DNA of 64,000 bases, taken from sequence record MW822007.1; one strand, written 5' to 3'. Below are positions 22,262 to 63,087 of the stretch, piece by piece. Origin of the DNA: Escherichia phage BF15. Positions within the stretch are counted from its first letter, which is position 1. Each line of letters opens with the position of its first letter. The position numbers were made by a program, and so were the translations under genes. The notes under the pieces are model-generated. The model did not search any database. It had not been told where the DNA came from and saw only the letters and a list, made by a program, of their open reading frames with translations.

Positions 22262-22642
22262 TCAATTAGAAAATAAATTTATCCAAGATTGTTCTTTAAT
22301 TAAAAATGGCTCAGAATCATATGCCATTAAACTCTGTGTGATTAGTCCTTTAAAAGGCCCATCAATAAATTCCATGGTAAAATATGGAATTTTATTCATT
22401 AGCCGTGCATTAGGAGCAGTACATAAAACTCTGCATCCTTTGAATACACCTTTTTGTAATTTGTATTGCTTGGGATAAAATTCGCTCAAAATGTTGTTAT
22501 TTGCCAAAATTTCAAAATGATTTACCAATTTATTTTTAATAGTTTTTGGCGAAAAATAGAGATATTCGAAAAGCTGAGTGTCTGTCATCATTGCATTCCG
22601 ATTACGAAAAACTGTGGACGAGTAATACCACCAATACAACAT
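22262..22642 (-). CDS. vs.7: hypothetical protein
   Basis: 126 aa; start overlaps the upstream ORF by 55 nt. Confidence 0.4.
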
Positions 22643-23127
22643 TTAATATTACAGCAGCAGTGTACAGTGTCAATATGGACACTATAAATCTTATCCATAT
22701 CAGGAGATTTGACAGGCTCGTCAATTATATACAAAATTCGCGAAAGCGATAAACCTCTGAACTTGCTTCCTTTATTACCAATAAAACTGCGTACAGAATC
22801 AGTAAATAAACGAAAACGTATATCATCATTAGAATAACGCGAAAATTCCTTTTTAATGTTATTTGCAGAAATTTTAGCGTAAGCTGAAGTATTAGAAAGA
22901 ACAATAACTGTTCCGCCATCATACAACCAATTAGCAGCAAAGTTAGTCACAGCAATTGATTTACCGGATTGACGCCCACCATCTAGTCGAAGTGTGCAAT
23001 ACTGTTTAAGTAAGTCTTCAAATGGCGGGATATATTCGTTTTTACAAATTTCTTCTACTCTAGCATCAGAATGGTGTGTAAAAGCATTCATCAGGGATAG
23101 ATAAGGTCCAGTTAAAAATGTTCTCAT
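22588..23127 (-). CDS. vs.8: P-loop protein with Cys-rich tail
   Basis: Walker A-like GGRQSGKS; C-terminal HCCCNIKCC. Confidence 0.4.
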   Translation of the reverse strand: MRTFLTGPYLSLMNAFTHHSDARVEEICKNEYIPPFEDLLKQYCTLRLDGGRQSGKSIAVTNFAANWLYDGGTVIVLSNTSAYAKISANNIKKEFSRYSNDDIRFRLFTDSVRSFIGNKGSKFRGLSLSRILYIIDEPVKSPDMDKIYSVHIDTVHCCCNIKCCIGGITRPQFFVIGMQ

Positions 23128-23240: not shown

Positions 23241-23543
23241 TTATTTACCTTTAATTACTTTAGCTGCTTCGATAGCCGCTTGCTGAAGGTCATCCATAGA
23301 CATACCGAATTTAGAAGCAAAGTTATCAATTTTCTTTTCGACAGCATTCAAAGGCTTGGCCTGTTTACCTTCATTAGCGCCAGGAAGAGCGAGAATACGC
23401 TCTTTGTCAATATAAAGGCTTACAAGTTTCTTACGGTCTTTATCGGACAAATCATGAAATGAATGGGCCTTTTTATTTATAGCGGCTTCTAATTTACCTG
23501 CACTCACTCGCGCTTCAGTAATAAATTCTTGATATGTTTTCAT
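23241..23543 (-). CDS. ipII: internal protein (IPII-like) with capsid targeting sequence
   Basis: MKTYQEFITE-A leader with gp21-type cleavage motif; 100 aa. Confidence 0.7.
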   Translation of the reverse strand: MKTYQEFITEARVSAGKLEAAINKKAHSFHDLSDKDRKKLVSLYIDKERILALPGANEGKQAKPLNAVEKKIDNFASKFGMSMDDLQQAAIEAAKVIKGK

Positions 23544-23584
23544 ATGTTTCCTTTAAATGTAAATAGGTCTGAGTATTATCTTTA

Positions 23585-24163
23585 TTAGGAATTACGGGCT
23601 GCATTAGCAACGGCGTAAGCGTACTGGACATTAGCGTCTTTAAACGTACCTTTAGAGGTATCTATTTCTGCCTTAAAGCCGCCTTTAGCCATAACATCGG
23701 CAAATTCTTTACGGAAAGCCATTGCATCAAGACCTTTCCATGATGATTTATGCTTGGCAAATTCAAGACCAGCGTAGTTGACAGCCTTAGCTAATTTATT
23801 ATCAATAACCCATTTACCGGCTTTAGGCACAAACTTCGGGCCTTTTTGTTTAGAGAACAGTTTTAAATTCCAGCGACGAAGGTCACTGTCGGCTTTAACA
23901 AAAGCTGCGTCTAAGTTACTAGCAACAACATCTTCAATATGAGCAAATTTAAGTCCGTCAACTTCAATATTTAGATCGTTACGCCAGCGAAGTCCTTCCC
24001 AAGCGAAGGCTTTAAAGTCGGAAGCCTTTGTAGCTAAGTACCGTTCAATAGGAGCTGTTTTAGGGTCAAAGCCGTTTCCCGATCGGTAGGTCCACTCATC
24101 TTTATTAATGCCTTTGGCCTTTACTATAGAAGCTTCGGCAATAAATTCTTGATAGGTTTTCAT
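23585..24163 (-). CDS. ipIII: internal protein (IPIII-like) with capsid targeting sequence
   Basis: MKTYQEFIAE-A leader; 192 aa. Confidence 0.7.
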   Translation of the reverse strand: MKTYQEFIAEASIVKAKGINKDEWTYRSGNGFDPKTAPIERYLATKASDFKAFAWEGLRWRNDLNIEVDGLKFAHIEDVVASNLDAAFVKADSDLRRWNLKLFSKQKGPKFVPKAGKWVIDNKLAKAVNYAGLEFAKHKSSWKGLDAMAFRKEFADVMAKGGFKAEIDTSKGTFKDANVQYAYAVANAARNS

Positions 24164-24191
24164 GTGTTTCCTTGTTTGTTTTGATAGAGTA

Positions 24192-24221
24192 ATTATACCA
24201 TATTAATACTTAAGCGTAAAC
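24192..24221 (-). promoter_or_regulatory. early promoter (GTTTAC, 15 nt, TGGTATAAT)
   Basis: consensus match. Confidence 0.5.
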
Positions 24222-24224
24222 CGT

Positions 24225-24485
24225 TTAAGCTTTACCGCCAGAAATAATTCCGAAGTTGTTAAAATCATATCCAATATCGTCAACATCTACTTTAGGACTT
24301 GCTACAACATAAGCAATTTCACTACGTTTTGCACAGGTGTTGATTTCTTTACCATCGCCACCTAAGAAAGAATACCCATTACGTTTTAATGAGCCAAAGT
24401 CTTCCGCATCACCAATGAAAGCTTTAACTTTAAATTTAGAACCTTTGGCATCTGCTTCAACGATAAATTCTTGATACATTTTCAT
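24225..24485 (-). CDS. novel internal-protein-like gene with capsid targeting sequence
   Basis: MKMYQEFIVE-A leader; 86 aa, Gly-rich body. Confidence 0.6.
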   Translation of the reverse strand: MKMYQEFIVEADAKGSKFKVKAFIGDAEDFGSLKRNGYSFLGGDGKEINTCAKRSEIAYVVASPKVDVDDIGYDFNNFGIISGGKA

Positions 24486-24491
24486 TTTTCC

Positions 24492-24595
24492 TTAGTAAAT
24501 TGATTTACCAAAGTATTTGTACCAAGTCGGACGTTGATCAATTTTTTCATCTAAGCGTGCTTGATTTATCGCAATGGACGCTTCGGACGGGTCAT
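24492..24595 (-). pseudogene. denV: denV remnant: start codon and last ~33 codons joined out of frame
   Basis: GGAGG-N7-ATGACCCGT (MTR) then stop after 9 codons; in the +1 frame ...[30 protein letters not shown] matches the T4 endonuclease V C-terminus as recalled. Confidence 0.6.
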
Positions 24596-24621
24596 AATTT
24601 CCTCCAAGTAGTTGATGAATG

Positions 24622-24652
24622 TATAGTATCAAAACCCTTGGAGGAAGTAAAC
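24622..24652 (-). promoter_or_regulatory. early promoter (GTTTAC, 15 nt, TGATACTAT) of the denV remnant
   Basis: lies inside the N-terminal part of track ORF 24492-24689. Confidence 0.45.
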
Positions 24653-24654
24653 AA

Positions 24655-25895
<1,241 letters not shown>

Positions 25896-25914
<19 letters not shown>

Positions 25915-59310: not shown

Positions 59311-60935
<1,625 letters not shown>

Positions 60936-60936
<1 letters not shown>

Positions 60937-61184
60937 TGGAAGGTTTAATTGAAGCTATTAAATCAAACGACCTCGTAGCCGCTCGTAAATTATTTGCTGA
61001 AGCCATGGCTGCAAGAACGATTGATTTAATTAAAGAAGAAAAAATCGCTATCGCTCGTAATTTCTTAATCGAAGGTGAAGAACCTGAAGACGAGGATGAT
61101 GACGAAGACGAAGATAGTGATGATAAAGACGACAAAAAAGACAAAGACTCTGACGAAGATGACGAAGACGAGGATGATGAATAA
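60936..61184 (+). CDS. 67: prohead core protein gp67 with poly-acidic tail
   Basis: 82 aa; C-terminal ~30 residues almost entirely D/E. Confidence 0.8.
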
Positions 61185-61609
61185 TGCTTCTGATCCCTGA
61201 AACTCATGAATTAGTTCTCGAGAATGTCGAAGCACTTATTCCTGAAGCACAGGGTCGCTTTGACGAATTGTCTTCTGCTTTAAATAAAGACGATATAAAT
61301 ACAATTGTCGAGAATATGCTTGATGATGAAACCGATTTAGCAGTTGCATTAGCTTCTATTAATGAAAATATGCCGTTAAATGAATTCATTGTTAAGCATG
61401 TTTCAGCTCGTGGTGAAATTACACGTACTAAAGACCGCAAAACACGCGAACGTAATGCATTTCAAACCACTGGGCTGTCTAAAGCAAAACGTAGACAAAT
61501 TGCTCGCAAAGCTACCAAAACGAAGATTGCCAATCCAGCAGGTCAATCTCGTGCTCAGCGTAAGCGTAAAAAAGCTCTTAAACGCCGTAAAGCATTAGGA
61601 TTAAGCTAA
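61184..61609 (+). CDS. 68: prohead core protein gp68
   Basis: 141 aa; basic C-terminus. Confidence 0.8.
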
Positions 61610-62247
61610 TGAATGAACCCCAATTACTAATTGAAACTTGGGGTCAACCTGGCGAAATTATTGATGGTGTGCCAATGCTTGAATCCCACGATGGAAAAGA
61701 CTTAGGTTTAAAACCTGGTTTATACATCGAAGGAATATTCATGCAAGCAGAAGTCGTCAATAGAAATAAACGTCTTTATCCAAAACGCATATTAGAAAAA
61801 GCGGTAAAAGACTATATTAATGAGCAAGTTTTAACTAAACAAGCTCTCGGAGAATTAAATCATCCTCCACGCGCTAATGTTGACCCGATGCAAGCCGCTA
61901 TCATTATAGAAGATATGTGGTGGAAAGGAAATGACGTATACGGACGAGCTCGTGTTATTGAAGGTGACCATGGTCCTGGAGATAAATTAGCAGCTAATAT
62001 TCGTGCCGGATGGATTCCAGGAGTTTCTTCTCGTGGATTAGGTTCATTGACTGACACAAATAAAGGTTATCGTATCGTAAACGAAGGATTCAAATTAACT
62101 GTAGGTGTTGATGCAGTATGGGGTCCAAGTGCTCCAGATGCATGGGTAACTCCTAAGGAAATTACCGAATCACAGACGGCGGAAGCCGATACAAGTGCCG
62201 ATGACGCCTATATGGCTCTCGCAGAGGCCATGAAAAAAGCGTTATAA
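61609..62247 (+). CDS. 21: prohead protease gp21
   Basis: 212 aa. Confidence 0.9.
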   Translation: MNEPQLLIETWGQPGEIIDGVPMLESHDGKDLGLKPGLYIEGIFMQAEVVNRNKRLYPKRILEKAVKDYINEQVLTKQALGELNHPPRANVDPMQAAIIIEDMWWKGNDVYGRARVIEGDHGPGDKLAANIRAGWIPGVSSRGLGSLTDTNKGYRIVNEGFKLTVGVDAVWGPSAPDAWVTPKEITESQTAEADTSADDAYMALAEAMKKAL

Positions 62248-62250
62248 ATA
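62243..62250 (+). promoter_or_regulatory. late promoter TATAAATA for gene 22
   Basis: overlaps the end of gene 21. Confidence 0.55.
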
Positions 62251-62277
62251 TTATTATCTAAACAACAGGACTACAAA

Positions 62278-63087
62278 ATGCTTAAAGAACAACTGATTGC
62301 TGAAGCGCAAAAAATTGATGCTTCCGTTGCTCTTGATAGTATTTTCGAATCAGTTAATATTTCTCCGGAAGCAAAAGAAACTTTCGGCACTGTATTCGAA
62401 GCTACCGTCAAGCAGCACGCCGTTAAATTAGCTGAATCTCATATCGCTAAAATTGCTGAAAAAGCAGAAGAAGAAGTAGAAAAAAATAAAGAAGAAGCCG
62501 AAGAAAAAGCTGAGAAGAAAATCGCTGAGCAAGCTTCTAAATTCATCGACCATCTTGCGAAAGAATGGCTCGCTGAAAATAAATTAGCAGTTGATAAAGG
62601 CATCAAAGCCGAACTGTTTGAATCCATGCTTGGTGGATTAAAAGAGCTCTTTGTTGAACACAACGTTGTTGTTCCAGAAGAATCAGTTGATGTTGTGGCT
62701 GAAATGGAAGAAGAGCTGCAAGAACATAAAGAAGAATCAGCTCGTCTGTTCGAAGAACTCAATATGCGCGACGCATATATTAATTATGTGCAGCGTGAAG
62801 TGGCATTGAGCGAAAGTACTAAAGATCTGACTGAGTCTCAAAAAGAAAAAGTCTCTGCTCTGGTCGAAGGTATGGATTATTCAGATGAATTCTCAAATAA
62901 ATTGAGTGCCATCGTAGAAATGGTGAAGAAGTCTAATAAAGATGAAAGCACTATTACTGAGGGTATAAATACTCCTGATACTGAAGCAGCCGGACTGAAT
63001 TTCGTCACTGAAGCTGTAGAAGATAAAGCTGCACCTGGTGCAGAAGATATTGTAAGTGTATATGCGAAAGTCGCATCTCGTTTCTAA
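62278..63087 (+). CDS. 22: prohead core scaffold protein gp22
   Basis: 269 aa; highly charged helical. Confidence 0.9.
   Translation: MLKEQLIAEAQKIDASVALDSIFESVNISPEAKETFGTVFEATVKQHAVKLAESHIAKIAEKAEEEVEKNKEEAEEKAEKKIAEQASKFIDHLAKEWLAENKLAVDKGIKAELFESMLGGLKELFVEHNVVVPEESVDVVAEMEEELQEHKEESARLFEELNMRDAYINYVQREVALSESTKDLTESQKEKVSALVEGMDYSDEFSNKLSAIVEMVKKSNKDESTITEGINTPDTEAAGLNFVTEAVEDKAAPGAEDIVSVYAKVASRF

Follow-up and report, generated by a model that had tools for sequence, protein, structure and literature searches.

A denV pseudogene in Escherichia phage BF15, probably formed by an out-of-frame deletion between short direct repeats

The sequence at positions 24492-24652, minus strand, of Escherichia phage BF15 supports its identification as a denV-derived pseudogene, that is, an orthologous remnant of the gene for the pyrimidine-dimer glycosylase endonuclease V. 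All positions refer to the 64-kb window, the whole stretch of BF15 DNA that was analyzed. Very probably, denV was killed in this lineage by an out-of-frame 310-bp deletion between two copies of a direct repeat, leaving the promoter, SD, and ATG behind. The pseudogene is real but unexceptional: a known mechanism has produced a natural null allele of a gene that is well known and dispensable. Natural denV loss is not new, and what the BF15 locus adds is an event that can be reconstructed base by base. The allele is already present in at least 13 public genomes, where it is mislabelled or unlabelled. Its main value therefore concerns annotation and the users of these phages, and it opens no long-standing question.

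The locus and what remains of denV

The DNA surrounding the remnant is that of a T4-like phage (Tequatrovirus), with the best public matches over 24 kb reaching 95-97% identity at 87-97% coverage. The gene order is as follows:

25459-25914, minus strand: nudE, placed by gene order around the denV remnant
24933-25421, minus strand: lysozyme e, placed by gene order
24655-24936, minus strand: upstream neighbour, an internal-head-protein gene (MKTYSEF..., 93 aa), annotated so in phages G4498 and UFV13
24492-24652, minus strand: denV promoter and remnant, adjoined on both sides by internal-protein genes
24225-24485, minus strand: downstream neighbour, an internal-head-protein gene (MKMYQEF..., 86 aa) from the open reading frame (ORF) list, annotated so in G4498
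23585-24163, minus strand: ipIII-like gene, placed by gene order
23241-23543, minus strand: ipII-like gene, placed by gene order
22588-23127, minus strand: vs.8-like gene, placed by gene order

The start ATG of the upstream internal-protein gene was verified at 24936. The downstream internal-protein gene begins 7 nt past the old denV stop and was probably co-transcribed with denV from the denV promoter, and the surviving promoter would still fire into the downstream internal-protein genes.

Within the remnant itself, these elements can be distinguished:

24647-24652, minus strand: -35-like element GTTTAC of the putative denV promoter, read directly and by homology to T4
24623-24631, minus strand: extended -10 element TGaTACTAT (TGATACTAT) of the same promoter, read directly and by homology to T4
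24601-24605, minus strand: denV SD, GGAGG, read directly, 5 nt before the ATG
24566-24595, minus strand: residual denV start, ATG plus 8 codons (MTRPKRPLR) and then TAA, by translation
24587-24599, minus strand: deletion junction, the single remaining copy of a 13-bp repeat (AATTATGACCCGT), by comparison with phage G2133
24492-24586, minus strand: 3′ remnant of denV, codons ~106-137 plus the stop, out of frame with the ATG, by tblastn
24492-24689, minus strand: mechanical 65-aa ORF from the ORF list, running through the end of the upstream gene, the promoter, and the SD into the denV tail

A preliminary description of this DNA had reported a minus-strand promoter followed by GGAGG and ATG ACC CGT (MTR), with a stop after 9 codons, and all of these are present in the sequence. 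The codons ATG ACC CGT run from 24595, and the stop TAA lies at 24568-24566, giving 9 codons in the ATG frame. Of the resulting MTRPKRPLR, M-T-R alone comes from the original denV reading frame. The description had also called the promoter early. The promoter drew support from the arrangement in T4, where denV is preceded by the identical GTTTAC, a 17-nt spacer, and the identical 9-mer TGATACTAT, but not from a generic sigma-70 and terminator scan, which left the denV promoter uncalled (8 of 12 consensus matches by hand count, against a scan threshold of 9). The promoter call is therefore based on the arrangement shared with T4 denV rather than on the scan, and homology makes promoter function at 24623-24652 likely. 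The GTTTAC element does not vary among 8 carriers of the deletion, and intact G2133 has the same hexamer. In T4, the denV SD is GGAG, and denV mRNA has been detected 3 min after infection (PMC1702504).

The opposite end of the remnant is recognizable as the DenV C-terminus, in a frame whose stop codon lies at 24494-24492. Of the last 35 residues of the remnant, 28 agree with T4 DenV and 32 with G2133 DenV. By tblastn, it aligned to residues 96-137 of T4 DenV with E = 2.7e-16 and to residues 102-137 of G2133 DenV with 89% identity and E = 1.6e-17. The similarity is thus far beyond chance, and it is to DenV and to no other gene. These alignments agree with the earlier claim that the last 33 codons, read out of frame, lie close to the T4 DenV C-terminus, and the possibility that this similarity belonged to another gene did not hold, as DenV only was matched.

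A 310-bp deletion between direct repeats

When the 801-bp locus was searched with megablast, 260 phage records matched. Many of these matched in two pieces spanning ~1110 bp, with endonuclease V annotated between them, and others matched in one piece. As the reference intact allele we used the closest one, that of phage G2133, in which denV is 414 nt including the stop and encodes 137 aa. Compared to T4 DenV, this parental type is identical at 123 of 137 residues, and in nucleotide sequence its interior is ~71-72% identical to many of the other Tequatrovirus genes recorded as endonuclease V. Because MAFFT pairwise alignment put the gap at an arbitrary place, the junction was remapped by exact matching. 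BF15 and G2133 are identical over 68 nt through ATGACCCGT, ending at 24587, after which the match resumes 310 bp downstream and continues to the stop. From the junction to the stop, there are two substitutions only, at 24565 (S>N) and 24538 (A>D) in the old frame. The remnant also has the same neighbouring internal-protein genes as the intact gene and so occupies the same slot. The out-of-frame loss of roughly 100 codons proposed in the preliminary description is thereby fixed at exactly 310 bp, or 103 codons plus 1 base. Since 310 is not a multiple of 3, the denV tail changes frame, and residues 4 to about 103 of DenV are removed.

Both endpoints coincide with a short repeat. In intact G2133, the start codon lies in a 13-base stretch, AATTATGACCCGT, that is matched, with one mismatch, by AATTATGTCCCGT 310 bp downstream at codons 102-106 (N-Y-V-P-S). 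This is the sole pair of 13-mers with ≤1 mismatch in the 473-nt intact unit, and its two copies lie exactly at the ends of the deletion. Some 12-of-13 repeat was found in 29 of 300 shuffled versions of the unit (~10%), so the existence of such a repeat is by itself unremarkable. The argument for a repeat-mediated deletion comes instead from the position of both endpoints exactly on the repeat and from the retention of one copy: the endpoints lie in a direct repeat of the undeleted allele, as seen in G2133 and in Pu-Krd-SF4, and exactly one copy is left. The Pu-Krd-SF4 repeat matches at 12 of 13 positions, the same as in G2133. The corresponding figures are 11 of 13 in 348Ecol098PP, where the Thr2 codon is ACT, and 10 of 13 in UFV13, while T4 denV has no such repeat.

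The one mismatch between the repeat copies allows the crossover to be placed. At this position (24592), BF15 carries the A of the upstream copy, which puts the crossover within CCCGT (24591-24587). The same A is found in 7 other aligned sequenced carriers, and the phage Shinka has T, the base of the downstream copy; the junction in both variants reads GGAAATTATG[A/T]CCCGTCCGAAG. Each variant has the base of one repeat copy, and T would be the other product that recombination within the repeat is expected to give. Alternatively, the difference may be due to a point mutation or a gene-conversion patch.

Under the proposed mechanism, the 13 bases around the start codon of the parental allele, recurring with one mismatch 310 bp downstream, would have misaligned with their second copy through replication slippage or short-homology recombination, and one copy plus all of the DNA between would have been removed. 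Because only one repeat copy and the intervening DNA would be lost, the promoter, SD, and ATG would survive. Translation from this ATG would then enter the wrong frame and end after 9 codons, leaving the last ~32 codons untranslated. We infer the slippage itself from its known signature, namely endpoints in a repeat with one copy kept.

Deletions in the rII region of T4 reportedly also have their endpoints in short direct repeats. They resemble the BF15 deletion in this respect and in the retention of one copy. By contrast, the BF15-type deletion comes from natural isolates rather than from laboratory selection, and both junction variants (A and T) occur in nature. This makes the locus a clean natural example of a short-repeat deletion in a T-even phage, with samples of the undeleted parental allele, of both junction types, and of the subsequent decay steps.

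Carriers of the deleted allele, later decay, and annotation

To find other carriers, we used a 53-bp junction probe and set the E-value cut-off so that an interrupted match would fail. The probe matched 14 records, representing 12 distinct phages besides BF15, from several laboratories: G4498, G8, Phaginator, F27, 235Ecol030PP, JM17, FL18, B1.1, JM10, FL12, FL23, and FL44. Shinka is a 13th carrier, with the same deletion, T at the mismatched repeat position, and the G2133-type bases at 24565 and 24538. The sources of those carriers that were looked up include German manure, Danish pig faeces, and Polish sewage. Scans of IMG/VR returned only G8 (deleted) and two intact alleles. Metagenome scans gave 0 matches to the junction and also 0 to a pattern common to the intact and deleted alleles, so this zero says nothing about prevalence. 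We found no description of this deleted denV allele in the literature.

Shinka has the state that a crossover within the left portion of the repeat would produce. It could have originated in a second deletion, as the other product of one heteroduplex, or through a conversion patch from an intact allele; a point mutation that happened to recreate the base of the other copy is the least likely origin. A bolder reading would treat the ACC codon for Thr2, which creates the 12-of-13 repeat, as the basis of a recurrent deletion hot spot, so that denV was lost more than once (A and T), with the loss favoured or cost-free in gut and sewage Tequatroviruses and the promoter kept to drive internal-protein genes. 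We regard this combination as improbable.

Among the carriers, the remnant can be arranged in a series of increasing decay. JM10 and FL44 retain the ancestral G and C at 24565 and 24538 and have lost 1 base of an A-run and gained one synonymous change. In JM17 and F27, position 24565 has become A, and in BF15, G4498, and B1.1, A stands at 24538 as well. The genes downstream of the remnant differ between carriers, which suggests spread by recombination. A single old deletion, subsequent drift, and transfer into different backgrounds by recombination would account for this pattern. Across 8 carriers, the 104-nt remnant has 6 variable positions, or 5.8 per 100 nt. The density is no greater in the remnant than in the upstream internal-protein gene, at 5.3 per 100 nt, and is 2.7 per 100 nt in the downstream gene. 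We therefore do not claim relaxed constraint, plausible as it is.

Four of the phages, F27, JM17, JM10, and 348Ecol098PP, are labelled Mosigvirus, even though the 801-bp locus is ~98-99% identical to that of Tequatrovirus phages. These labels reflect either mislabelling or exchange between genera.

Annotation of the denV stump varies from record to record. In B1.1 (L003, 869-1009), JM17 (L008, 355-495), and FL18, it is annotated as “endonuclease”, a 141-nt coding sequence (CDS) of 46 aa that begins at a TTG overlapping the TG of the extended -10 element. The JM10 and FL44 records have a 49-aa “hypothetical protein” at the stump. There is no feature over it in the GenBank/RefSeq records of G4498 and G8 or in Phaginator, F27, 235Ecol030PP, and Shinka. 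Since the carrier records examined leave the stump unannotated or call it “endonuclease” or “hypothetical protein”, UV repair would be wrongly scored as present or be silently lacking.

Loss of function and comparison with other T-even phages

The intact G2133 protein has the features of a functional endonuclease V, matching Pfam family PF03013 (Pyr_excise) over residues 1-87 at 50 bits (cut-off 23) and the T4 endonuclease V structure 2END over residues 1-137 with E = 2e-80. In BF15, all of the Pyr_excise-matching region is gone apart from the starting M-T-R, and colinear similarity to T4 endonuclease V covers only about residues 96/102-137 instead of the full length. Pfam searches of the 65-aa ORF and the 33-aa tail gave no match even at E up to 1-10, the remnant being too short for PF03013, and a Pfam search of five local ORFs gave nothing useful. 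Catalysis by T4 endonuclease V depends on Thr2, whose amino group is the nucleophile, and on Glu23. Thr2 and Arg3 are kept in the ATG frame, and the Glu23 region falls inside the 310-bp deletion. Judged from these losses, a functional pyrimidine-dimer DNA glycosylase could not come from the BF15 denV locus. Programmed frameshifting was considered as a rescue and rejected, since any fusion would still be without residues 4 to about 103. The phage would thus be unable to initiate the repair of UV dimers by a glycosylase, and its UV sensitivity should be close to that of a T4 denV mutant. The carriers should accordingly be easier to inactivate by UV than T4, a point relevant to phage-therapy production and environmental persistence.

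This prediction would fail if a functional denV, or another dimer-repair gene, lay elsewhere in the genome and left the phage repair-competent. The window covers 64 kb of roughly 168 kb, and the slot of denV varies among T-evens, following ipII in T4 and lying between internal-protein genes in the BF15 lineage. Still, we find this very improbable. The T4 slot, between the ipII-like gene (23241-23543) and the vs.8-like gene (22588-23127), is inside the window and is empty, and tblastn with T4 and G2133 DenV across the 64 kb found nothing else below E = 1. Moreover, G4498, which is 100% identical to BF15 over the 801-bp locus, has a complete genome in which a six-frame search recovered, below E = 1, the same remnant only and no endonuclease V is annotated. 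A full-length copy elsewhere, which would have overturned the preliminary description, was thus found in neither the window nor the complete G4498 genome. An assembly or sequencing artefact concealing an intact denV is scarcely credible. The deletion does lie between repeats, where assemblers can collapse sequence, but assemblers typically work with k-mers far longer than an imperfect repeat of 13 bp, the same junction is present in 13 independently sequenced phages from several countries, and the remnants bear later mutations of their own.

What remains at the locus could also have a use of its own. The 65-aa ORF, or its 46-aa version, might be a real small protein that reuses the DenV C-terminal segment, given that the frame is open for 65 codons and still open in 6 of 8 carriers and that three records label the 141-nt CDS an endonuclease. 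We consider this highly improbable. The ORF starts at a TTG within the upstream internal-protein gene, and its N-terminal half (the first ~32 codons) consists of the 3′ end of that gene in another frame, the intergenic promoter, and the SD. The TTG of the 46-aa version follows AAGGG by 2 nt and would lie 5′ of the inferred start of transcription. Neither the 46-aa nor the 65-aa product has an exact counterpart on record, there is no Pfam match, and all catalytic parts are absent. Because the 1-base loss in JM10 and FL44 breaks the frame and cuts the ORF to 17 codons, ORF 24492-24689 is best treated as an artefact that reads through the promoter and not as a gene, as first suggested. A different kind of use would be that selection has kept the promoter, SD, and mini-ORF as an early promoter or leader serving the internal-protein genes downstream. 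Such a role would not conflict with a dead denV, and we think it unlikely, if less so than the preceding alternatives. The 59-nt promoter and SD block (24596-24654) has 1 variable position in 8 carriers, an indel directly after the upstream stop codon, compared to 6 in the 104-nt remnant, and the next internal-protein gene starts immediately beyond the old denV stop. However, counts this small do not allow a test, and variation is likewise low in the downstream gene. The block is also identical in intact G2133, so its conservation may reflect recent common origin, and the deletion endpoints were set by the repeat rather than by usefulness.

As a deletion remnant of denV, the BF15 locus shares with the T4 gene (endonuclease V; PDB 2END; PF03013) its promoter elements, a GGAG-type SD, the N-terminal MTR, and the C-terminal RPTWYKY(F/Y)GK. 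It differs from T4 denV in that its tail is out of frame and the intervening residues are absent. Compared to the laboratory v/denV mutants of T4, the BF15 allele is natural, and its expected phenotype would be that of a denV null. The gene order differs as well, being e-ipIII-ipII-denV in T4 and e-IP-denV-IP-ipIII-ipII in the BF15 lineage. This arrangement makes denV, together with its own promoter, resemble a cassette whose slot differs from one T-even to another.

Among the classical T-evens, T2 and T6 are more sensitive to UV than T4. With tblastn, we found no DenV-like coding sequence over the whole T2 record AP018813 (best E = 4.3) and no denV in T6 AP018814 at 60-70 kb, the 10 kb around lysozyme e. 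In both phages, denV is therefore absent without a trace at the locus (in T6, over these 10 kb), whereas BF15 retains the promoter, start, and tail, and it is because these remain that the deletion event can be reconstructed in BF15.

Several observations on the neighbouring genes were made along the way. The N-terminal motif MK(T/M)Y(Q/S)EF opens four consecutive minus-strand genes in BF15 (24655-24936, 24225-24485, 23585-24163, and 23241-23543), and denV sits among these four internal-protein genes (region 23241-24951, minus strand). In UFV13 (NC_031103; L012, 1031-1283), the internal-protein gene 3′ of denV is annotated as two overlapping CDS of 129 and 153 nt rather than one of 255 nt, which suggests that it is frameshifted. 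In T6 (L024, 490-1507; record positions 60489-61506), regB directly follows lysozyme e, and the ipIII-ipII-denV-vs.8...vs.3 block of T4 is missing. T2 has a vs.8-like homologue (L018, 3757-4289; record positions 61756-62288) with 97-100% identity but in three frames, of which the record annotates just a 57-aa piece; this is either a frameshifted pseudogene or the result of sequencing errors. In BF15, the 179-aa ORF at 22588-23127 corresponds to residues 41-219 of T4 Vs.8 with 98% identity, and the first 40 codons of annotated T4 Vs.8 are without a counterpart in this ORF.
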